Virus record (IMG/VR): IMGVR_UViG_2721755660_000006
Location: 1 to 55,157 of that record
DNA length: 55,157 nucleotides
Reading direction: 5' to 3' (one strand)
Source of the DNA: a virus
Lineage: Duplodnaviria; Heunggongvirae; Uroviricota; Caudoviricetes
The notes beneath the pieces are model-generated. The model was given only the letters and a program-made list of their open reading frames with translations. It ran no database searches and was not told where the DNA came from. Position numbers and translations under genes: made by a program. Within the stretch, counting starts at the first letter, position 1; every line of letters begins with the position of its first letter. Positions 1 to 11,919 of the stretch are shown here, piece by piece.

Positions 1-1446
1 ATGAGTATGTCATCCATACCGTCGTCCTCCCAATCCGGGAAGCTCTATGGCTGGGTCGAAAGAATTGGTAACAAGGTTCCCCATCCTTTTTTGCTCTTTA
101 TCTATTTGATAATCGTACTCATGGTGACGACGGCAATTTTGTCAGCCTTTGGCGTCAGTGCGAAAAACCCGACCGATGGTACGCCGGTGGTGGTGAAAAA
201 CCTGCTCAGTGTGGAAGGATTACACTGGTTTTTACCCAATGTGATTAAAAACTTTAGCGGTTTTGCTCCACTTGGAGCGATCCTGGCGCTGGTTTTAGGT
301 GCCGGCCTAGCGGAGCGCGTCGGCTTACTGCCAGCGCTAATGGTTAAAATGGCATCGCATGTTAATGCCCGCTACGCCAGTTATATGGTGCTGTTTATTG
401 CTTTTTTCAGCCACATTTCTTCCGATGCGGCGTTAGTGATCATGCCACCGATGGGTGCGCTGATTTTTCTGGCGGTGGGCAGGCATCCAGTTGCAGGTTT
501 ACTGGCCGCCATTGCAGGCGTAGGTTGCGGCTTCACGGCTAATTTACTGATTGTCACAACCGACGTGTTGCTGTCGGGGATCAGCACGGAAGCGGCGGCT
601 GCGTTCAATCCGCAAATGCACGTCAGTGTAATTGATAACTGGTATTTTATGGCCAGCTCCGTAGTCGTTCTGACGATTGTTGGCGGCCTGATAACCGACA
701 AAATCATCGAGCCACGGTTAGGTCAATGGCAGGGAAACAGCGATGAGAAACTGCAGACATTGACCGAAAGTCAGCGTTTTGGTTTACGCATAGCAGGTGT
801 CGTATCGCTACTTTTTATTGCTGCGATCGCGCTGATGGTGATCCCGGAAAACGGGATATTGCGCGATCCGATTAATCACACCGTGATGCCATCACCCTTT
901 ATTAAAGGTATCGTGCCACTAATCATTCTTTTTTTCTTTGTGGTTTCGCTGGCTTATGGCATCGCTACCCGCACAATTCGACGTCAGGCGGATTTACCGC
1001 ATTTAATGATTGAACCGATGAAAGAGATGGCGGGATTTATCGTGATGGTTTTTCCCCTCGCCCAGTTTGTCGCCATGTTTAACTGGAGCAACATGGGGAA
1101 ATTCATCGCCGTGGGGCTGACCGATATACTTGAAAGTTCAGGGCTTAGCGGCATCCCGGCGTTTGTCGGTCTGGCGTTGCTTTCCTCTTTCTTATGCATG
1201 TTTATTGCCAGCGGTTCCGCAATCTGGTCGATTCTGGCCCCCATTTTCGTACCAATGTTTATGCTACTTGGCTTTCACCCGGCATTTGCGCAAATCCTCT
1301 TTCGTATTGCCGACTCATCCGTATTGCCTTTAGCGCCGGTATCTCCTTTTGTTCCACTGTTTCTTGGATTCCTGCAACGCTACAAACCAGACGCAAAACT
1401 GGGTACTTACTATTCGTTAGTCTTGCCCTATCCGCTTATCTTTTGA
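1..1446 (+). CDS. abgT: AbgT-family p-aminobenzoyl-glutamate transporter (host gene, ORF starts at window position 1)
   Basis: 481-aa polytopic membrane protein; N-terminus MSMSSIPSSSQSGKLYGWVERIGNKVPHPF recognised as E. coli AbgT from memory; stop lies 70 bp before the attL core. Confidence 0.85.
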   Translation: MSMSSIPSSSQSGKLYGWVERIGNKVPHPFLLFIYLIIVLMVTTAILSAFGVSAKNPTDGTPVVVKNLLSVEGLHWFLPNVIKNFSGFAPLGAILALVLGAGLAERVGLLPALMVKMASHVNARYASYMVLFIAFFSHISSDAALVIMPPMGALIFLAVGRHPVAGLLAAIAGVGCGFTANLLIVTTDVLLSGISTEAAAAFNPQMHVSVIDNWYFMASSVVVLTIVGGLITDKIIEPRLGQWQGNSDEKLQTLTESQRFGLRIAGVVSLLFIAAIALMVIPENGILRDPINHTVMPSPFIKGIVPLIILFFFVVSLAYGIATRTIRRQADLPHLMIEPMKEMAGFIVMVFPLAQFVAMFNWSNMGKFIAVGLTDILESSGLSGIPAFVGLALLSSFLCMFIASGSAIWSILAPIFVPMFMLLGFHPAFAQILFRIADSSVLPLAPVSPFVPLFLGFLQRYKPDAKLGTYYSLVLPYPLIF

Positions 1447-1595: not shown

Positions 1596-4500
1596 TTATT
1601 TTTCGCTTCCGGTCAACTGCCGGACAAGCGCTTCAAGTTTAGTGATCCGCTCATCCATGACGGCAATGTTAGCTCGTAAGCTGGCGTTTTCTTCCTCCAG
1701 TTCGGTGACGCGGTTATCTGTTTCGCGTGCCACCTGAACAAGTAAACCAGTCACAGCCGCATAGTCAACATTAAGATAGCGCGTTTCTTCGCGTAGCTCG
1801 TTGCCGTCAATGGTCGGACCTTGTAACGCTTCACCGTAATGAGTAAACGATCCCACAGCTTCCGGAAGCGCCTCCATGACCTCCTGAGCGATAACGCCAG
1901 CGTAAGGCAGGCCGTTTTCCTTAAGCGTGTAGGTGTACCCGTTCATTTTACGGATTGCTTCAGTAGCATCGCCTATAACCTGAATGTTGTCCTTCAGGTC
2001 GCGGTCTGAAGACTGGTTTACTGTTACGCAGTTTACAGCACCATTAACCTGAAGTTGGCATGAATCATCAGTGTTTTGCTGTGCGTAAAAAAACCATGAA
2101 AGCGACGCGTTTGTGTCTGGATCTTTTATCTTGTACTCAAGTACAGTCGGACGGCTTGCTGCACCCCACAAATAAAGCTCGCCATTTCTTGCCGCTGAAT
2201 TTGCGACGGCTAAACTTACTTTTCTTGTGTAAGTATCAGCGAAAAACTCCGTAGATTTAAATTGCTGGTATCCAGTCCACCTTTGCGAAGATGCGTTAAG
2301 AGTAGCAATTTGACACCAGCCCTTATCTACTCCGGCCTCAAAACTTCTGGCATAGAATTTTGAATTACGTCCGGCGAATTGAGTTGCGTGGCTACCGCTA
2401 AATCCAACATGAAAACCACCATAAGTTAGGCTATTTTCAGGTGTATTAATGTTACCAGCAATAGGCTTAAATTTGCTTACGTTATCTGATTGTTGTGCGC
2501 TCCAGTCCTGATCTGAATATGTCGCAACCCCGTTTCCAGGCTGTATAGTTCCGTTTGATTGGATAACCTGGTAAGAATCACCATATTTATTGCGGTATGT
2601 ATCAGTGCAATAAAACCCTGTTGCACTCGATGTAAAATCAAGTAGGTTATTACTAATGCCGTAAGTGTCTAAATCAATACCATCAGAGGAATTAGTGATA
2701 CCCCATTTATAAGTCGGACTATCTGCTGTGTTAGCTGGCTTCCAGTCTGCTGTAGGTATTGTTACAGTACATCCAACCGTAACAGCGATGCGAATGGGGA
2801 AGGCATCACCGCGAACATAGATCGCGTTATGCTGATACTGCCCTTTATCAGTACCGCGAACGCAAAGTATCGCGTTTTCATTGTTTGCGTAACAGAAATA
2901 ATGACCAAATGCAGCCGCCCCCATATCTGACCAGCCACCATCACGTAACCATAAATGAATTGCGTTACAGTTAGGCTCTTCACTGCCAGATATTGACTTA
3001 GTTCTCATTGCAATTTCAACAAGGAAATCGCCGTTATAGTGTGAAGGATGGCTGACAATTACAGGGTAATATTTACCAGCTTCAGCACCAGTAGGGGCGT
3101 TGTAATCAACCCAATGCGCAATACCTGCAAACGGGATTTGCATATTGGTTTTAGTTTGTTCAAGGTTTGTAGGTACTGCAATTGCATTGACTTTCAGGTT
3201 AGGTACTTCTATTTCATCCCTTGCATAGTTGTAGCTCATTGAATTGCTTGTTTTCGTCCCGTCATATCCGTCTTTCTGAATACGCCAGTTACCACCATCA
3301 AAGACAAGGCTATAGTAAGGTGTATTTGATGGCCGATCCGTTTCGTTGAATCTGATGGTAGGATGAGCGCTTGATATTTCTACGGGATAATTAAAATTAG
3401 CTGTTAATCTTACACGCCTACCTATAAAATCACCGCTATTTAAAGAAAAGTCGCCGTCTTCGCTTAATCCTGCGTATTGGTTTTTATCTCCATTCTGTAG
3501 GTGAATTGTGGCCCATGATTTACCATCGCCACGGAATTCTGAATAAAAACGCGCTCGCGCTCTTTGTGCGCCTGATGCATCATTAAGGACGCTTTGTAAA
3601 ATACCGCCTGCCGTGGTTGCGACATCTGACGACCTAACAAGGTTAAGGTTTGTAAATTGCGGGCTATCAGTAAAATCAAGAGACTGAAATTTCTTCCATG
3701 CGGTCCACTCCCAACCAGAAGAGGAAGACTGAATGATGTGCTGGCGCATATAAAATGTACCAGTCGTGGCATTGTAAGGGAAATAAAGCTGCGTGCATCC
3801 TGCGTTACCGTTCGCATTATTTCTAATAACAAGCAATGCTCCCGCACTTGATACAGGATAACCGCGCGCAGTCGTGGCATTTGCGTTTAACCCCTGGTAA
3901 TAAAAACCGGAATACTCGCCTGTAAGCGTATTAATATCTGTGGAACCTAGATCTGATTTTTTCTCATACATAGCCTCAAGGTTAGTGCGAGCTTGTCCTG
4001 AATTAAGCCCGCCTGTACCACCATGTGCTACTTTTAACGGAACAAAAGCGCCTGCGGAATCATCATACACACCCCAATTAATAGTATCCCCTGTTCCACC
4101 ATCCCACAGAACAAATTTTTGTTTTCCTCCTGCGGCCCACAAAGCAGTCTCACTGCTACCCTGAACTAAGCGACTAACCTCATCTTTCCTTGCGTGGCGC
4201 GTCCATTGTGGGCCTGTTGATTCGCTCCACTTATAAGTGTAAGCACTTCCGGTCATCTGCCCTATAAAAAGGCCAGAAAATGCCGGGACACTGCCTAAAG
4301 TCGGGCAAATAAAGCCAGACAAATAGCGCTCACCTGAAGCAATAGAAGGCCACCCGGCAGCCCCTTCCATGATGCGCAGAAAGCCAAGATAACCTGATGG
4401 GTTTCCTGAAATATCCGGGCAATCTCTGGGGTTTGAGGAAAGACCAATGCTACTCCCGACAATACCTTGCGCCTGATTGCGATAGTTTAGCGCATCGGCT

Positions 4501-5078
4501 GCTGATTTTGCCGCATTGGTTTCACTGGTGGCAGCCGCCGTTTTGCTGTTGCTGGCTGATGTTTCGCTGGCTTTTGCTGCATCCTGTGACGCTTTCGCTG
4601 CGGTCGCTGAGTTTGCCGCTGCTGTTTTTGATGCCGCCGCCGCGTTTTTGTCTGATTCTGTTTTTTGAGCGTTGGCGGTTGATTGCGCTGTTTCTGCGCG
4701 AATGTTGGCAAGAAGCTGATCCATCTGACCATCTCCGCCGAAATCTTTCCACCACTCGACGGCTGCGGCGATCTCTGTTTCCTTGCCCTGGTAGTAACGC
4801 AGTGTTTCAGCTACGTCCTGAGCAAGACCATCAACTGAGATCGAGTCAGAAAGCAGAATGCTAAATTTTGTCCCTGCAGGAATGGCAGGATTAGCCGCAG
4901 GCGTTACTGATAATTCAGTACCGCTCTTAATTTCGGTGATAGTGAAAATCTGTACCGGATTTCCAATGGCAATGAGCGTGCACCCCACACGGATGAGAGA
5001 GAGCGGCGCGGAAAAGTTTGTTCCCGTGCCTGTAACAGTATTGCCGCTAATGGCAATTGTTCCCGTTGTATAAATCAT
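1596..5078 (-). CDS. Tail fibre protein with C-terminal intramolecular chaperone (peptidase S74-like) domain
   Basis: 1160 aa; Ala/Ser/Thr/Lys-rich repetitive N-proximal region as in lambdoid side tail fibres; C-terminal SSDRDLKDNIQVIGDATEAIRKMNGYTYT matches the conserved autoproteolytic chaperone motif. Confidence 0.8.
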   Translation of the reverse strand: MIYTTGTIAISGNTVTGTGTNFSAPLSLIRVGCTLIAIGNPVQIFTITEIKSGTELSVTPAANPAIPAGTKFSILLSDSISVDGLAQDVAETLRYYQGKETEIAAAVEWWKDFGGDGQMDQLLANIRAETAQSTANAQKTESDKNAAAASKTAAANSATAAKASQDAAKASETSASNSKTAAATSETNAAKSAADALNYRNQAQGIVGSSIGLSSNPRDCPDISGNPSGYLGFLRIMEGAAGWPSIASGERYLSGFICPTLGSVPAFSGLFIGQMTGSAYTYKWSESTGPQWTRHARKDEVSRLVQGSSETALWAAGGKQKFVLWDGGTGDTINWGVYDDSAGAFVPLKVAHGGTGGLNSGQARTNLEAMYEKKSDLGSTDINTLTGEYSGFYYQGLNANATTARGYPVSSAGALLVIRNNANGNAGCTQLYFPYNATTGTFYMRQHIIQSSSSGWEWTAWKKFQSLDFTDSPQFTNLNLVRSSDVATTAGGILQSVLNDASGAQRARARFYSEFRGDGKSWATIHLQNGDKNQYAGLSEDGDFSLNSGDFIGRRVRLTANFNYPVEISSAHPTIRFNETDRPSNTPYYSLVFDGGNWRIQKDGYDGTKTSNSMSYNYARDEIEVPNLKVNAIAVPTNLEQTKTNMQIPFAGIAHWVDYNAPTGAEAGKYYPVIVSHPSHYNGDFLVEIAMRTKSISGSEEPNCNAIHLWLRDGGWSDMGAAAFGHYFCYANNENAILCVRGTDKGQYQHNAIYVRGDAFPIRIAVTVGCTVTIPTADWKPANTADSPTYKWGITNSSDGIDLDTYGISNNLLDFTSSATGFYCTDTYRNKYGDSYQVIQSNGTIQPGNGVATYSDQDWSAQQSDNVSKFKPIAGNINTPENSLTYGGFHVGFSGSHATQFAGRNSKFYARSFEAGVDKGWCQIATLNASSQRWTGYQQFKSTEFFADTYTRKVSLAVANSAARNGELYLWGAASRPTVLEYKIKDPDTNASLSWFFYAQQNTDDSCQLQVNGAVNCVTVNQSSDRDLKDNIQVIGDATEAIRKMNGYTYTLKENGLPYAGVIAQEVMEALPEAVGSFTHYGEALQGPTIDGNELREETRYLNVDYAAVTGLLVQVARETDNRVTELEEENASLRANIAVMDERITKLEALVRQLTGSEK

Positions 5079-5255: not shown

Positions 5256-5504
5256 ATGAAAAACATGTTCAAAGTGGTCTTATTCGCTGCGGCTGTAGCT
5301 CTTACTGGTTGCTCTGTTGACAAAGAGGCTGCATTGCACAACCTGCCAAATAGCGGAGTAATCCCACAAGAAATTGTCTATGATGCTGACGGTCATCTTG
5401 TATATGACACTGAAAAACTTCCGTATACTGGACAATGGTGTCATGAACTCGATCACAACATGCGCCGCATCGGTAGCCCGTCGAATTGCGTAGCTAACTA
5501 CTAA
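5256..5504 (+). CDS. Small lipoprotein moron, possibly Cor-like superinfection exclusion
   Basis: 82 aa with lipobox (LTGC) after a hydrophobic signal; sits between tail fibre and J on the opposite strand; own upstream element and terminator. Confidence 0.6.
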   Translation: MKNMFKVVLFAAAVALTGCSVDKEAALHNLPNSGVIPQEIVYDADGHLVYDTEKLPYTGQWCHELDHNMRRIGSPSNCVANY

Positions 5505-5511
5505 AAGAAAA

Positions 5512-5537
5512 CCCCGCGCGAAGCGGGGTTATTTTTT
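5512..5537. terminator. Bidirectional rho-independent terminator between lipoprotein gene and J
   Basis: CCCCGCGCGAAGCGGGG hairpin flanked by A-run and T-run, between convergent gene ends. Confidence 0.75.
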
Positions 5538-8500
5538 ATGCCCATGATCCTGAGCTTCTCGTAACAAGCGCAAGACCCGCCCTTCTTTCTGCGCCTGTGC
5601 TGGTGTTAGTGTATTCTTCCGTTATTTTTATAGTCACTTTTTGCGCCGTGATCCCTGCGACACAATGGGATACCGTAAATCCGAATTGAGGCGTTGATGC
5701 AGCCCTTACTACTGAATATGTTTTCTTATTGCCATTAATATCAATTGTTACTTTTATGGATGTTGATTGAGAATATTGATAGTAAGTCAGGTGATAAGGA
5801 ATCATCACAAAAACGGTTTTAGAAAGCGAACTCGAAGACGAATCTGTATAAGTTTTAGTAACAGAACGCGATGCACTGCCCGACTGGTCAGGGAATGATG
5901 CTTGAGGTATAAAGTTAGTTGACGCGACATCGCCTACAAAACTTGTAGCCTCTAGCGACCCTTTAAATTTACCGCTATTTGCATACACCGCCCCCCTTAC
6001 CGTTACGTTGTTAAGCTCCGCGCTACCGTTTTTATTAATCATCCAGCCAGCCGAACCGGCTTTATAGTTGGTTGACTGTATTTGCTGTGCAATTTTAGCT
6101 GTAGTGATTGCTGCATCTGCAATTTTAGCTGTCCCTATTGATGCGTCTTTAATAAACGCTTCGCGCACATACATTGCACCATTGGTGACATAGAAAGGCG
6201 TTTGATATGTGCCGTTTGCGGCGGTCATTAACACGAAGCGGTCAACAAGGAAAATACACTGCGATTGAACGTTAGTCCCGCTACCAGTCAGGCCAAGAGA
6301 CATGCCTGTTGCGTATTTTTTGCCGTTGTTGTCGGTGGCAATCTTGATTGACCATGACGCATCAACGTTACCTTTGAAGTCAGTTAACGCTTTCGATGTC
6401 GTCTCGATCGCCGTGGTGTTCCCGTTAACTGTTACTGTAAGCTGATCAATTTTGGTTGATAATGCCTCGTCCGCAGTTGTCATGGTCTGCGACCATTCCG
6501 TGATGCTTGAGTTTACAGCTTCGAAAGACGCTGAGATCTGGCTGAATTTTTCCGCGCTTGATGTTTCATGCGTAGAAAGTGCTGTTGACACTTCAGATAC
6601 TTTCGAATTAATCGTACTGGTAAGCGATGAGTTAAGACTACTTATTGCATCTGTGCGGGCCTTTGTCTCATCTGCAATAGCTTTGTCGATACGGGTCACA
6701 TTGCTTGTAACCTTGCTATCAAGCGTGCTGATGCTTGCATTCACTCCGCTGATAGCTTCGGTTCTTGCGCTCGTCTCATCTGCGATGGCTTTATCAAGAC
6801 GAGAAACACTTGCGTCTGTTTTGTTTTCAAGGCTGCTTATTGAGGCATTTACTCCGCTTATTGCTTCCGTTCTTGCCTGTGTTTCGTTTGCAATAGCTTT
6901 GTCTACTCGCGCTATCTCGCCTTTGATGTTTGAGTCCATCGTGTTCATCTCTGCGGTGATAGTTTCAAGCGCTTCTGCTGTTGCCTGTTTTTCGTCAGCA
7001 ATAACATTGTCTATACGGTCGATTTGCGCTTTAGTCTCACTGCGCCCTTTCTTGTATTGAGCGGTAAGAGTGACGCGCGTATTAGTTTGAGCAAGCGAAT
7101 TATTGATGAGCGCAAGCGATGCGTTTTGTAGGCTTGCTTTTGTCTGTGCCAGTTCGTTATCGACGTTTTCGCTTGATACCTCTAATGAGTCTATTCTTAC
7201 CTCATGTTTGCCTATTTCATCGGCGTTTTCTTCGACTTTTTTATAAAGGTCTTCAGTGTCTTTTTTAAGCGCGTCTGTGTCTGTTTTAAGGTTGTCTGTA
7301 GCTGTTTTAAGGTCGTCTGTAGCTGTTTTAAGGTCTTCAGTTGCACTTTCGATAATGTCTGCGCGGTCGCCAAGATCCTTAATGTCGCTTACCATTTCCT
7401 TGAACTGGTCTGAATTCAGCACGTCTTTAGTGACATAATCGCTGATTTCATCGAAGTTTTCTGTTGGCTGTCCTGATGCTTCTACGAAGTCAGAAACACC
7501 AAAAGCATTACGTGTGCGCACATAAACGTAATAAGTGTGGCCCGTATTCATGCCGCCGAAAGTCCACTGATACCCGCGCCCGGTAAACTGTGCCGCCGTG
7601 GTTATTTTTGCCGGATCTGTGATCTGGTTTTCCCCTGCATAGTAGAATTCGTACGCTGTATCAGTTGTTAGCGTTGTCTTGCTTATCGGGTACACTGTAG
7701 CCTGAAATACACCTGGAACCCAGTTAACGCCTACTGGCGCTGCTGGCGCACCGATAACAAGGTCAACGATACTTTCGGCACCCTTCATGCCAGTATCATT
7801 TCTTCCGCGAACCCCTAAAGAATACACGCCAGCGTCAATGCCATAAAAATCATAACTGTATTTCGTGGTTTCATAGCTTTTAACCACCGCACCATCTGCA
7901 TTATATATGCGGATCTCAAATGTCATACGATGCGTGGTTGTCTGTGTTTCCCATGTGGCGCGGCATTGAATTGTTTCCGATCCAATGTTTACCACCTTCA
8001 GATTTTCAATGTTCGGCACGCGGAAATGATTAAGCGTATCATTGTTGACCTCAAAGATTGCGCCTTCATCGACTATCGCTTGTTTGTTAGGGTCGTGCTG
8101 TGCGGCTTCGATAGTGTATACGCTGTTATTTTCTGTTTCTGCTACACTGGTGATCCGGCACAAAACGGGTTTTGCCACTTCAGTCGATACAGCAAAAACA
8201 GTGCCGTTTCTAATCCATGACGGGGCCGCCGCCAGTGTGATTTTGTTTCCGCTCACCCCGGTGATCTGATGTTTTTTAAACTTGCCATCGCTATCAAGAA
8301 GGCTGATTGTATCCCCAGCGGCAATATATTTAGCATCAACCTTGTCTACAGTTATTACTTTGCCGTTGTTCGCAACGATGCGACCGCCTAAGCGAGCGCC
8401 AGCGCGGTTATTATCGAGGATCTCGATGATATCCCCTGGCGTAAAGTGAATCGCGTCACGGGCCATTTTAAACGTGAATTTTGACGGCTCGCGTTTTGCT

Positions 8501-9864
8501 GTTTCTATCAGCCATTTGCCCGCGCGGTACGCTTGCCCGCGTGACGTGCACCCGAACGCCTCCAACGTGGTTTCGTTGTAACCATCACGGGCGATTAGCT
8601 CATCATCTGCTACATACTCTTTGGATTGCTCCCAGCCGTTTTCCGGGTCTGTCCATGACACAATCACGGCGTTGTAGCATTCTGCGCGGGCGATACTTGA
8701 ACGAGTAAACGCGCCATCAACGACATTTGCATTTGTAATGGTGGCGATCGGGTCTTGTGGTGCATCAATCATCACGGTAAGGCGTTGCCCGTCCCATAAC
8801 GCGATACCCCTGAACATCCCGGCGATATTGTCCAGTAAGTCGCGGGCGCTCATTTGCTCTGTGATGTAAGCGTTAAGCGTCATGCGAGGCTCAAGGCCGC
8901 CGTAGCCATCATCAACCAACTGGTCGCAGTATTGAGAAAGCGTATACAGTGCGCCGTCATCAACGTCAATATAGCCAGCATGACGGGCAAGGCCGAAACG
9001 CTCGTTTTTAACCAGGTAACGGAAGATCCACGCAGGGTTATTAGTGTAAGCCTGTTTCAAGCCGCCAAGCCATAAACCGGAATAAGTGCGCGTTTCCGGG
9101 TCGTAGTTATCAGGCACGTCGACAATAAGACCACGCAGGTGATAAGTGCGTGTAGGCGTGTCGGTGTACTGGTCGTGGTCAATTACCGCGCCTGCTACAG
9201 CGGTGTGAGGATAAGATAAATTATCGTCGATTATTTCGCTGTAGCTACTCCATCGCGTATCATTTCGCAATAGATCGCTTGTGCTATCAGCCGTTACGCG
9301 GCGAACGCGAATATCAAACGGTTTTTCATCCGGCGCGTTGATAATATGCGCTTCAAGATATTCTCCGCTGATCTTACCCGGACCTATAGTGACGTCTTTA
9401 ACAAGCGTCCACGTAGAAGAAGACGAAGGCTTCACGTCAATCATCATCATGACAGATGTATTATGTTGATTGCTTTGCTCGTCAGATTGTACAAGTGAAT
9501 CGACGCCGATATTCAGGCGCACGCGCGTAACGTTAGGATCTGATACAGTCCTGATTATTGGAGTATCGTGTTTCACCTGAGCGTTAACAATAACGGTTGA
9601 TTCGATGGCGCTAAAACCGTTAATAGGTGATTGATCTAGAGTACCATTGCGCCACGCCACGCTAACGCCAGGGATGCTGGTATTGCCGTTCGCGTCAGTT
9701 ACAGGGGTGTCATTAAGCATAACGCTGTTTAATGGCGCTTTCGTATTCACAGGTCCATAAATCGGACCTTCTGAAATAATATCCAGTACACGATAAAACT
9801 GTTTATGATACAGGTTGTCATTTATCAATGTTGGTGTTTTTGCTTTGCCGCCGCCGCTACTCAT
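5536..9864 (-). CDS. Host specificity / tail tip protein (lambda gpJ-like)
   Basis: 1442 aa; N-terminal region aligns by eye with lambda J (ISEGPI, LRGLIVDVP, FGCTSRGQAYRAGKWLIET); contains internal 36-aa and 7-aa tandem repeats. Confidence 0.9.
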   Translation of the reverse strand: MSSGGGKAKTPTLINDNLYHKQFYRVLDIISEGPIYGPVNTKAPLNSVMLNDTPVTDANGNTSIPGVSVAWRNGTLDQSPINGFSAIESTVIVNAQVKHDTPIIRTVSDPNVTRVRLNIGVDSLVQSDEQSNQHNTSVMMMIDVKPSSSSTWTLVKDVTIGPGKISGEYLEAHIINAPDEKPFDIRVRRVTADSTSDLLRNDTRWSSYSEIIDDNLSYPHTAVAGAVIDHDQYTDTPTRTYHLRGLIVDVPDNYDPETRTYSGLWLGGLKQAYTNNPAWIFRYLVKNERFGLARHAGYIDVDDGALYTLSQYCDQLVDDGYGGLEPRMTLNAYITEQMSARDLLDNIAGMFRGIALWDGQRLTVMIDAPQDPIATITNANVVDGAFTRSSIARAECYNAVIVSWTDPENGWEQSKEYVADDELIARDGYNETTLEAFGCTSRGQAYRAGKWLIETAKREPSKFTFKMARDAIHFTPGDIIEILDNNRAGARLGGRIVANNGKVITVDKVDAKYIAAGDTISLLDSDGKFKKHQITGVSGNKITLAAAPSWIRNGTVFAVSTEVAKPVLCRITSVAETENNSVYTIEAAQHDPNKQAIVDEGAIFEVNNDTLNHFRVPNIENLKVVNIGSETIQCRATWETQTTTHRMTFEIRIYNADGAVVKSYETTKYSYDFYGIDAGVYSLGVRGRNDTGMKGAESIVDLVIGAPAAPVGVNWVPGVFQATVYPISKTTLTTDTAYEFYYAGENQITDPAKITTAAQFTGRGYQWTFGGMNTGHTYYVYVRTRNAFGVSDFVEASGQPTENFDEISDYVTKDVLNSDQFKEMVSDIKDLGDRADIIESATEDLKTATDDLKTATDNLKTDTDALKKDTEDLYKKVEENADEIGKHEVRIDSLEVSSENVDNELAQTKASLQNASLALINNSLAQTNTRVTLTAQYKKGRSETKAQIDRIDNVIADEKQATAEALETITAEMNTMDSNIKGEIARVDKAIANETQARTEAISGVNASISSLENKTDASVSRLDKAIADETSARTEAISGVNASISTLDSKVTSNVTRIDKAIADETKARTDAISSLNSSLTSTINSKVSEVSTALSTHETSSAEKFSQISASFEAVNSSITEWSQTMTTADEALSTKIDQLTVTVNGNTTAIETTSKALTDFKGNVDASWSIKIATDNNGKKYATGMSLGLTGSGTNVQSQCIFLVDRFVLMTAANGTYQTPFYVTNGAMYVREAFIKDASIGTAKIADAAITTAKIAQQIQSTNYKAGSAGWMINKNGSAELNNVTVRGAVYANSGKFKGSLEATSFVGDVASTNFIPQASFPDQSGSASRSVTKTYTDSSSSSLSKTVFVMIPYHLTYYQYSQSTSIKVTIDINGNKKTYSVVRAASTPQFGFTVSHCVAGITAQKVTIKITEEYTNTSTGAERRAGLALVTRSSGSWA

Positions 9865-9878
9865 GGCTTTATCTCCTG

Positions 9879-10409
9879 TTAACTTACAACGTCTAAGGCG
9901 TCTTTATTGTTTGTTGTGTCTATGCCTAACGATCCTACATTTGAACCTACTTTCATTTCGCCCAATAAAATTGGCACTGGTCTACCCTGGCCCACCCTGT
10001 TTTCTATGCTGGTGTAACTGTTGTTTGTTATGGTGTTATCCTGTGCGCTTTCTGATGATGTTTTCACCTTCATGTTGCGAGACATGAAAATAGAAAATGC
10101 GACACTAACAACTGATATTCCGATCATAATCCAACCGACCACACCGATCCCTGCAATACCACCTTCCACTATTGGCGCAATAATTACCGTAGTCCCATCT
10201 GGATATTTGCTATTAACCGCAGCGGGCGCGGTCTTTTCGTCGTAATCTTTCCCGGCAATTCGTAAACGCAAAGGTGTATTTAAAAACTCCTTCTTGAATT
10301 CCTGATTCTGCGCGGTCAACAAGCGAAGTCCTTGCGCTGGCGTTTCAACGTTTAAATACACTTTGCTGTAATATCTTCGAAGATTGCCCGTAAATCTAAA
10401 TTTGAGCAT
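9879..10409 (-). CDS. Tail assembly protein (lambda gpI-like)
   Basis: 176 aa; pattern matches lambda I (RIAGKD, glycine-rich hydrophobic middle, PILLGEMKVGS); overlaps the K gene as in lambda. Confidence 0.8.
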   Translation of the reverse strand: MLKFRFTGNLRRYYSKVYLNVETPAQGLRLLTAQNQEFKKEFLNTPLRLRIAGKDYDEKTAPAAVNSKYPDGTTVIIAPIVEGGIAGIGVVGWIMIGISVVSVAFSIFMSRNMKVKTSSESAQDNTITNNSYTSIENRVGQGRPVPILLGEMKVGSNVGSLGIDTTNNKDALDVVS

Positions 10410-11083
10410 TTATCAGATCTCCATATTGAATGCGTTTGTCGAACATAAGCGGGCCGCATTTGCTCGCGGCGGCTTAGCAGTCCGGCATTGTCATGATGCA
10501 AAACAGTGTTATCTCCCAGGTAAATCATCGCGTGGCATGGGTCCGCGCCTTTAAACGGCTGCCGGATAATTACATCTCCAGGCTGGATGCTTTGCGCGTC
10601 AACCTGATAAAACCCGTTTAGCGGCAAGTTTTTTAAATACAGGTTTTCACCACGCAACCACCACCCATCAAGGCGCTCGAAGTCTGGCAGATCCACGCCG
10701 CAAAGGTGATAGGCGTCGCGGAAAAGCGCGTAGCAGTCTGTTTTCCCGTGTTCAAATTTTCTGCCTAACAGGTGCGCTACCGGACGGAATTTCCTGATCC
10801 TTCCGCCTGAATACAAAAGCCAGGGTAGGCCTGAAATAACTTGCTGTTGTCGATCCCGTGCAGACAATACCGGAATATCATCAACGTGAGAGTGAAAAAC
10901 GGCGGTTATAACGCCTAATTCGTCAGCTTTAATGTAATCGTCAGGCGAAATCTTGAAGCTGTTGTAAGGCGTTTCAGACACGTTAGCGCACGGGTAAAAA
11001 TATTCGTTATCTATTACCAGTCCGCAAACTTCTTCAAACGGATGCGCGGCGGCATAACGCAACATTTTGTCTTCCATCACCAT
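10352..11083 (-). CDS. Tail assembly protein (lambda gpK-like)
   Basis: Synteny between L and I; start refined to the internal Met (MVMEDKML) abutting the L stop. Confidence 0.75.
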   Translation of the reverse strand: MVMEDKMLRYAAAHPFEEVCGLVIDNEYFYPCANVSETPYNSFKISPDDYIKADELGVITAVFHSHVDDIPVLSARDRQQQVISGLPWLLYSGGRIRKFRPVAHLLGRKFEHGKTDCYALFRDAYHLCGVDLPDFERLDGWWLRGENLYLKNLPLNGFYQVDAQSIQPGDVIIRQPFKGADPCHAMIYLGDNTVLHHDNAGLLSRREQMRPAYVRQTHSIWRSDKCSNLDLRAIFEDITAKCI

Positions 11084-11085
11084 GA

Positions 11086-11790
11086 TTAACCTACCTTGCT
11101 GGAACCAGGGAAACAGGAAATTGGTAACGGATTTGGACGCGGGAAACGTAAACGACAACCGCTCAAGCGGTGGCTGCATCTGTCGGCTTTAGGATCGCTT
11201 GTCGGCTCGTCTTTATCGTTTGCCACTGGTCCGCCAGAGTACATACATCCGTCGCCTCTGTATTGCCACTGGCAAACGTCAGCAAGGATGGTGCGCCCAG
11301 GGATAACGGCCTTGTCAGCATCAATTGGGGTTGACAGTTCATATTGCACCTGATCCGCTGTTTCCTCGCTCATGGCCTCCACGACGTAAAAAGATACAGC
11401 CTCAATAGATGGATCTGCATCTGGATTGCCGTTTGGGAAGTTAACGGCGTCCAGGTATTTTACTTCCACCTGGCGGCGCGTAACCTTCATTCCTCGCAGG
11501 TCGTTGAAGTCGTTATTCATCCCTGTGATTAGCCCGCCGATATTGGCTACAACCATTTGAGGCCGCGAATAAACGCCCTCGTTTTTCATTTCGAAGCCAG
11601 TAGCCTCGATCGGGTAGCTGTTGTAAGTTAATCCCTTCCAGATAACCGGGCCGTAATAGCCATTCGCGCCGGAATGGAAGCGGATAACCTCGCCACCCAG
11701 GGGCGACAAGTCCAGTTCGAACAAGTCAATCACCGCTCCCACACCAGCGTCCACGGAATCAATAATCATCTCTGTAGGTATATTGCGCAT
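11086..11790 (-). CDS. Minor tail protein (lambda gpL-like)
   Basis: Aligns by eye with lambda L (FLDAVNF-NGN, DRCS-RLSGC); start refined to MRNIP, preceded by AGGTGA Shine-Dalgarno. Confidence 0.85.
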   Translation of the reverse strand: MRNIPTEMIIDSVDAGVGAVIDLFELDLSPLGGEVIRFHSGANGYYGPVIWKGLTYNSYPIEATGFEMKNEGVYSRPQMVVANIGGLITGMNNDFNDLRGMKVTRRQVEVKYLDAVNFPNGNPDADPSIEAVSFYVVEAMSEETADQVQYELSTPIDADKAVIPGRTILADVCQWQYRGDGCMYSGGPVANDKDEPTSDPKADRCSHRLSGCRLRFPRPNPLPISCFPGSSKVG

Positions 11791-11919
11791 TTTCTCACCT
11801 TCTGATTTTGTGATCTGCGTCACGCCAAATCATACCAAAATGGATTGATCGCGGTTTATACAATATGTATATTTTACTCAAACGGAAGCACAGTTAACAA
11901 AATGGCGCGGAGGTGTGAG

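Follow-up and report, generated by a model that had tools for sequence, protein, structure and literature searches.

Tandem repeats in a lambda J-type central tail fibre gene as probable modules of a coiled-coil shaft that vary in number

Several central tail fibres that resemble the protein J of phage lambda have been described. Lambda J itself (gpJ; 8iyk, 8xcg, 8xcj), the receptor-binding central fibre of that phage and trimeric in its solved structures, passes from its FNIII domains almost directly into a beta-prism at about residue 838. The central fibre of the F-type pyocins (PyoF10/PA0641; 25vf, 25vj, 26ci), which carry no genome and kill by ejecting a tape measure protein, comprises a hub, FNIII domains, a long helical shaft of approximately 165-170 residues, and a beta-prism; the shaft has been resolved as a trimeric coiled coil (PMC13455828; bioRxiv 10.64898/2026.02.24.707460). 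With phage T1, the fibre protein gp33 (9l9p) carries tandem units of 33 residues after its FNIII domains; its C-terminal 350 residues were too flexible to be resolved and are predicted to form a fibre of about 37 nm. Closest of all are the mEpimmI (mEp021-like) phages of Escherichia coli, the J proteins of which were reported in 2025 to differ in size, with a C-terminal part that "contains repeats of different length (positions 950-1,475)" (PMC11893012); the units were not defined or counted in that study, nor was their change traced. The subject of the present analysis is the J gene of a stretch of 55,157 nucleotides (IMG/VR virus record IMGVR_UViG_2721755660_000006, positions 1 to 55,157, assigned to the Caudoviricetes), hereafter called the window in its entirety, and the two arrays of tandem repeats within that gene. 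The mEpimmI phages carry this gene too, with the genes around it in the same order.

The repeats of the window's J are likely to be modules of a three-stranded coiled-coil shaft of the central fibre, the number of which is altered by recombination and would set the reach of the receptor-binding end. The gene occupies positions 5536..9864 (minus strand, as are all further coordinates within J) and forms one uninterrupted open reading frame (ORF) of 1442 residues plus stop. Its N-terminal portion is recognized by the Pfam families FNIII-A_GpJ (residues 88-214), Phage-tail_3 (335-492), Ig_J (609-707), and Ig_J_second (709-811), and Phage_Tail_Tip (PF09327, DUF1983) matches residues 1152-1299 (E = 6e-40); residues 811-1152 gave no significant match in Pfam. 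The protein further matches PHROG 31, "central tail fiber J" (E = 0), and lambda gpJ (8iyk) over residues 1-850 (E = 1e-186), and it scores 740 bits with the NCBIfam model lambda_TipJ, under the lambda-specific cut-off of 1950 of that model. Its location after homologues of L, K, and I in the tail-tip cluster likewise fits a central fibre of the lambda J type. On these sequence criteria J is a lambda-J-type central tail fibre, and the Pfam, PHROG, and PDB matches bear out an initial annotation, made from the nucleotide sequence of the window, that had named the gene as J of the tail tip.

The N-terminal hub and FNIII/Ig domains (residues 1-811; 7432..9864) are common to lambda J, to which the first 810 residues are homologous, and the Phage_Tail_Tip beta-prism (residues 1152-1299; 5968..6411) is also shared. 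Beyond it lies a variable C-terminal end, presumed to bind the receptor (residues 1300-1442; 5539..5967), which in the window (…TRSSGSWA) belongs to neither the OmpA type nor the LamB type of the six characterized mEp phages. Between these parts the two proteins differ: lambda J aligns with the protein of the window up to about residue 850 and then again only from about residue 1146, and the predicted helical stretch of approximately 330 residues is thus an insertion relative to lambda. Both arrays are located within this segment, which follows the last Ig domain and precedes the beta-prism tip; lambda J, with the same receptor-binding role, has neither the shaft nor the arrays.

Three repeats of 108 nucleotides and three of 21 nucleotides had been noted initially. 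Both sets are real and in frame, but each has more members. The 108-nucleotide array is a family of four copies at a spacing of exactly 108 nucleotides (6592-7023; residues 948-1091 in codon register), and only three were counted because the first is degenerate. This N-terminal unit 1 (residues 948-983; 6916..7023) begins IDRIDNVIADEKQ and is followed by unit 2 (residues 984-1019; 6808..6915), unit 3 (residues 1020-1055; 6700..6807), and unit 4 (residues 1056-1091; 6592..6699), the last representing the commoner of two conserved types of terminal unit. Units 2-4 are 50-67% identical to one another in amino acid sequence, the nucleotide identity of the window's units is 50-62%, and the longest exact run that they share in register is 15 nucleotides. 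The periodicity is nonetheless strong: the lag-36 amino acid autocorrelation is 54/108, compared to 9.7 +/- 3.0 (maximum 22) in 5000 shuffles, and the lag-108 nucleotide autocorrelation is 181/324 against 88 +/- 8 in shuffled sequences.

With the shorter array, Tandem Repeats Finder delimited 7263-7335 with a period of 21, 3.5 copies, 88% matches, and a score of 111; read in codon register it consists of five heptads, ATEDLKT, ATDDLKT, ATDNLKT, DTDALKK, and DTEDLYK (residues 841-875; 7240..7344), and the 21-nucleotide consensus first proposed corresponds to the antisense (plus) strand of their codons. The Ala/Leu spacing of 4 and 3 is that of a canonical heptad core, and the segment is rich in Asp and Glu. 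Positions 7294-7314 and 7315-7335 are identical 21-mers, which constitute the longest short-lag exact repeat of the J gene; in shuffles of the gene, such runs reached only 8-12 nucleotides and never exceeded 12. The two arrays are separated by a segment (residues 876-947; 7024..7239) that holds a block of constant length including ASLQNASLALINNSLAQTNTRVTLTAQYKKGR, a sequence present twice in the long alleles. As the units are contiguous codons lacking spacers, and lie in frame inside a conserved ORF, an array of clustered regularly interspaced short palindromic repeats (CRISPR) or any other non-coding repeat was rejected, in agreement with the initial reading of them as coding repeats.

Structure prediction indicates that the repeats lie in helices. 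AlphaFold2 run on the single sequence of residues 801-1200 predicted helices at residues 819-893 and 912-1165, with beta-strands from residue 1168 onward. The first helix (7186..7410) holds the heptad array and the second, longer helix the 36-residue units; in the shaft region, NCBIfam returned only weak matches of the SMC/Rad50 coiled-coil type that amount to noise. The helices are parted by a break of low confidence (residues 894-911; 7132..7185), with predicted local distance difference test (pLDDT) values of 42-49 and no helix predicted, which may represent a kink or a docking site. When an alignment of 49 sequences was supplied, units 3 and 4 remained helical (pLDDT 95-97) and a non-repeat segment that follows the array (residues 1102-1165; 6370..6561) changed from helix to a beta-meander continuing into the tip domain; the models are monomeric and the alignment is shallow over the 36-residue units. 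Foldseek searches with the alignment-based model returned the lambda gpJ central fibre (8xcj) as top hit and only significant match.

The periodicity of the units is that expected of a coiled coil. The 140 distinct 36-residue units collected from 29 J proteins have a hydrophobic period of 3.6 residues, which has been read as 7+11+7+11, and their consensus is V-S-R-L-D-Q-A-I-A-D-E-T-S-A-R-A-E-A-I-S-G-V-N-A-S-I-S-T-L-D-S-K-T-D-A-S. Hydrophobic residues occupy positions 1, 4, 8, 19, 22, 26, and 29, and the ten core positions are 1, 4, 8, (11), 15, 19, 22, 26, 29, and 33; Glu11 is present in 100% of the units and Arg15 in 93%. A predicted helix is thus combined with a core repeat within 3.5-3.67 residues, as in coiled coils. 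Homology points in the same direction, with residues 917-1166 of the F2-pyocin fibre (25vf) aligning to residues 999-1253 of the window's J (E = 1e-25), and with the non-repeat segment showing clear homology, in the 25vf_A alignment, to the coiled coil of the F-pyocin fibre at the C-terminal part of the latter.

The number of units varies among related J genes. As searches for homologous proteins yielded only proteins shorter than approximately 1.75 times the query, most of them partial C-terminal fragments, the census was taken from nucleotide records and comprised 29 J genes, viz. that of the window, that of Escherichia phage MagusPhagus, those of six mEp phages, and 21 taken from IMG/VR contigs, with units counted by hidden Markov model. 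They carry between 4 and 13 units, always spaced by exactly 36 residues apart from one type of exception, a step of 75 or 82 residues at the place where the block upstream of the array (ASLQNAS...KKGR) has been inserted as a second copy. Measured between fixed anchors, the heptad segment has 30, 37, 44, 51, 58, or 72 residues (= 2+7n), and the stretch leading from the anchor DLYKKV to the first unit is invariably 70 residues long in the relatives with both anchors located (all but four). The whole shaft extends from 356 residues in the window, the shortest measurable, to 761 residues; with four units, the window is among the shortest, and MagusPhagus has exactly one 108-nucleotide unit more. 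The units that vary are the internal ones, whereas the types of the first and last unit are conserved among alleles, the type of unit 1 being the first in every allele with a complete array. Hence the initially proposed refutation, identical repeat number in all relatives, does not hold. The accompanying proposal that the repeats vary the length of the tail tip is correct as regards variation in length, but what varies is the fibre shaft below the tail tip and not the tip complex itself.

The C-terminal ends of these proteins fall into several classes, each of which includes both short and long shafts. Thus, among the phages reported to use OmpA, mEp515 has 5 units and mEp021 has 13, and among those reported to use LamB, mEp013 has 5, mEp010 has 10, and mEp044 and mEp554 have 13 each (receptors from PMC11893012). 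Shaft length is therefore not tied to the choice of receptor. A higher-order duplication was observed in the long alleles, including those of mEp044 (L003), mEp554 (L004), mEp010 (L006), mEp021 (L007), and several IMG/VR loci: a block of approximately 46 residues, ASLQNAS[IL]ALINNS[IL]AQ...KKGR, is repeated together with a new first unit to give two sub-arrays (the 82-residue step). The window has this block in single copy, at about 7024-7160.

Two changes in copy number could be traced. The J gene of mEp515 equals that of mEp021 minus one in-frame gap of 1002 nucleotides, with 0 other differences over 4182 nucleotides, and the junction lies in register at GATAA, adjoining a block of 35 nucleotides shared without mismatch by units 5 and 13. 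This difference is a recent in-register recombinational deletion between non-adjacent units, the direction being assigned because the long architecture is common to the whole clade. Between the window and MagusPhagus, identical flanks enclose a diverged cassette of 150 versus 258 nucleotides whose ends fall inside units; the change is an exchange with another allele rather than a slip. The rival view, contained in the initial annotation, is that the arrays form a slippage-driven contingency locus, in which mispairing during replication would constantly generate length variants of J within populations. Relatives do differ by exact unit steps, two adjacent 21-nucleotide units are identical, and the lineage of the window and MagusPhagus has one heptad more than a related allele (L011). 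Several near-identical tandem units, as in a slippage-prone contingency repeat, were, however, found in neither array: the 21-nucleotide array has only two identical copies, and the most similar pair of 108-nucleotide units within one gene is only 52-82% identical in all 29 alleles, with none above 82%, which marks these units as old paralogues rather than fresh duplications. Given the low identity of the window's units (with exact runs in register of at most 15 nucleotides), and with the traced events being a cassette replacement in one case and a deletion spanning non-adjacent units in the other, slippage is unsupported for the 108-nucleotide units. For the identical pair of 21-nucleotide units it is plausible, but two perfect copies are a poor substrate for slippage compared to classical contingency loci, and a slippage-driven contingency locus is considered very unlikely overall.

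Another proposal concerns what the 36-residue units do after binding. In the F7-pyocin fibre, a coiled coil of 163 residues (residues 921-1083) refolds into a beta-prism on contact with the cell, and the same switch has been predicted for 21/24 siphophage central fibres, with a motif, SxSxxMxxLxS, and buried Glu-Arg (i+4) salt bridges as its signature (He et al., PMC12874032). By analogy, the units of J could be a metastable coiled coil that is converted to layers of beta-prism after receptor binding, shortening the fibre several-fold and helping to open the tail tip, such that copy number would determine both reach and stored energy; this would be compatible with a coiled-coil shaft and add one step to it. 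The shaft of the window aligns, weakly over the units themselves, to the homologous F2-pyocin region, and the motif, in both orientations, occurs 16 times in residues 912-1165, compared to 4.4 +/- 2.0 expected, with 0/5000 shuffles reaching 16; it is absent (0 matches) from the heptad helix and found only 6 times in the other approximately 1190 residues. In most units the motif matches once forward and once in reverse, units 2-4 contain ETxAR, and each unit has a Glu...Arg (i+4) pair as in the buried salt bridge described, so that motif and pair are features of the pyocin and of the window's J alike. The alpha/beta flip of residues 1102-1165 also corresponds to the behaviour of shallow versus deep alignments reported for the pyocin (PMC12874032). 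With the alignment, on the other hand, only that non-repeat segment flipped and the units stayed helical, in a monomeric model and with little alignment depth at the units. Coiled-coil periodicity is lost in the shuffled control, and since the motif is built from the spacing of a coiled-coil core, it may be matched by an Ala-rich coiled coil that does not switch. Moreover, lambda and T5 employ no such switch, and the pyocin study (PMC12874032) is a preprint; the switch has been shown in the pyocin and would only be inferred for the window's J. We rate a fold switch of the repeats as rather unlikely. Less likely still is that the acidic heptads, perhaps with the break at residues 894-911, form a platform to which the side fibres encoded downstream attach, with repeat number setting where or how many of them sit on the shaft. 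F-type pyocins do dock three side-fibre trimers on a negatively charged kink of the shaft (PMC13455828), and the window combines a side-fibre gene of 1160 residues (1596..5078) with Asp/Glu-rich heptads and a predicted helix that breaks. Pfam and PHROG scans of the side-fibre protein, however, showed no tie to the pyocin side fibres (a direct comparison of the two was not made), the side fibres of Ur-lambda are placed on the tail-tip collar and not on the fibre of J, and mEp515 and mEp021 have the same heptad array with another gene downstream of J. A final variant would make the two arrays matched parts of one fold-switching machine, with the heptads kept in step with the units by selection. 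Unit number and heptad length are correlated, the Spearman coefficient being 0.90 for 25 alleles and 0.75 (p = 0.005) when the 12 distinct combinations are taken once each. When independent contrasts were computed with a local tree, r was 0.85-0.88 without the recent deletion mutant mEp515 but 0.07-0.59 with it, depending on the treatment of the zero-length branch between mEp021 and mEp515. With the outcome hinging on how this branch is handled, covariation is not claimed as an established finding. Close pairs of alleles differ in one array at a time; the covariation could derive from linkage and ancestry, the arrays lying 250 nucleotides apart, or from selection for matched lengths. Matched arrays of this kind thus seem quite improbable. 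If they did exist, the fibre would become about five-fold shorter after binding, the heptad array would serve as a "spine" along the prism of refolded units, and copy number would tune both fibre reach and the energy released for opening of the tail tip.

The reading preferred here is the modular coiled-coil shaft. The shaft would follow the last Ig/FNIII domain of J and lead to the beta-prism tip domain, with the 21-nucleotide units encoding ordinary heptads and the 108-nucleotide units encoding 36-residue modules of ten core positions, each having its invariant Glu followed by Arg four residues later. The modules would be kept alike by selection on the protein and not by recent duplication. 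Their number would be altered by in-register homologous recombination, either inside one J gene or with the J allele of another phage that co-infects or is resident, and the identical 21-nucleotide pair might also change by slippage. If each residue contributes the standard rise of about 0.148 nm, a 36-residue module would add approximately 5.3 nm and a heptad approximately 1 nm; the shaft would then measure about 50 nm in the window (two helices) and, in the longest alleles, about 110 nm. Its length would set the distance of the receptor-binding end from the tail tip, independent of the receptor.

A number of points weigh against this reading. For J, a trimeric coiled coil is deduced from the periodicity and from homology to the resolved pyocin shaft and to lambda gpJ, a trimer in its solved structures, and the homology to the pyocin shaft is weak over the repeat units themselves, being clear only for residues 1098-1167 (pyocin residues 1014-1083). 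In the only micrographs reported, the mEpimmI phages are described as having tails of about 130 nm, with no mention of central fibres of 50-110 nm (PMC11893012); bending, folding, or flexibility of the shaft may account for this, and the lengths given above are upper bounds. Finally, mEp515 still plaques on the receptor of mEp021 after its loss of nine units (1002 nucleotides), which shows that the change is tolerated and not that it is an adaptive tuning; a selective value of shaft length can be no more than presumed.

Viewed against the fibres already described, the shaft of the window's J is a further case of the helical shaft of J-like central fibres, i.e., a known fibre design and not a new system. 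It has the overall plan of the F-type pyocin fibre, from which it differs in its 36-residue tandem modules and its copy-number series, neither of which has been reported for the pyocin shaft. The units of T1 gp33 share the core IA-x-E-x-x-A-R with those of the window; in T1 gp33 and in more distant fibre proteins with an IA-[DN]-E-x-x-A-R core, the unit length is 33-42 residues and identity to the window's units is low. A profile of the 36-residue unit searched against 1.84 billion cluster representatives found only 21 matches at E <= 1e-3, and a scan of contigs with the shaft peptide gave 87 pattern matches, none of which was confirmed. Among the proteins found, P0016, P0025, P0027, P0028, and P0030 are distant tail-fibre or host-specificity proteins with 4-10 tandem units of 33-42 residues and a core of [IV]-A-[DNG]-E-x-x-A-R-x-x-A-[IVL]; their hosts look non-enteric by sequence. 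These distant proteins suggest an old and widespread fibre-shaft module that lacks a Pfam family.

The alleles constitute a natural series of fibre lengths, in which the same tail tip and receptor-binding ends are carried on shafts of 4-13 modules. Within it, mEp021 and mEp515, with J genes that differ solely by the 1002-nucleotide shaft stretch, are a useful pair for examining effects of length. The series could be used to probe how central-fibre length influences adsorption through O-antigen or capsule layers and, if a fold switch of the pyocin type applies, how the size of the switching element relates to genome delivery. Modular variation also accounts for annotated J genes that differ by hundreds of codons between close phages and for the many database entries that are C-terminal fragments. 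The entries P0001-P0012, P0014, and P0034-P0036 include many "partial" C-terminal fragments of 180-450 residues that start in or just after the units; such entries would be expected if short-read assemblies break within the repeats. Three of the partial entries carry the precomputed Pfam domain PF28217.1.

Outside the J gene, the window begins with abgT (1..1446, plus strand), an E. coli transporter gene that is 99% identical to many E. coli chromosomes, and the 3' end of abgT is a documented attachment (att) site of mEpimmI phages with a type II integrase (PMC11893012). In the nucleotide comparison for group assignment, which covered the J region, identity was 97.6% to Escherichia phage MagusPhagus and 82-84% to six phages of the mEp021 group (mEpimmI), and the annotated gene order of these relatives, L, K, I, J, lipoprotein, and fibre, is that of the window. 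From the J-region identity, the synteny, and the att site, the window is concluded to be an mEpimmI-type prophage of E. coli integrated at the 3' end of abgT. Of the tail-tip cluster, the L homologue (Phage_tail_L) lies at 11086..11823 and a K-like gene with NlpC/P60 and JAB domains at 10352..11179; the gene at 9879..10409 has no Pfam match and was taken as the I homologue because the syntenic gene of 531 nucleotides in relatives is annotated "tail assembly protein I." A gene of 567 nucleotides is present between I and J in mEp515 (L005 937-1503) and mEp021 (L007 937-1503), annotated as a hypothetical protein in the former and as a putative HNH endonuclease in the latter; neither the window nor MagusPhagus has this gene, and the other mEp phages lack it as well.

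On the other side of J, a lipoprotein gene of 82 residues (5256..5504, plus strand; phrog_12984) lies between J and the side-fibre gene and on the strand opposite to both. It is conserved at the same place in MagusPhagus and the LamB-type mEp phages, and it may encode one of the Lpp superinfection-exclusion proteins discussed for this group (PMC11893012). The side tail fibre gene (1596..5078, minus strand; 1160 residues) encodes a Peptidase_S74 intramolecular chaperone domain at its C-terminus (residues 1024-1075), and at its position mEp021 and mEp515 have a different gene, annotated as a virion structural protein. An antisense ORF within J (6452..7060, plus strand; 202 residues) was treated as spurious, having no PHROG match and overlapping, on the other strand, an ORF that is strongly conserved. 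J also contains a third small repeat in frame, just past the Phage_Tail_Tip core (6092..6158, minus strand), where two copies of 30 nucleotides encode the 10-residue units TAKIADAAIT and TAKIAQQIQS; mEp021, mEp515, and mEp010 have one copy, and the window, mEp013, mEp044, and mEp554 have two.

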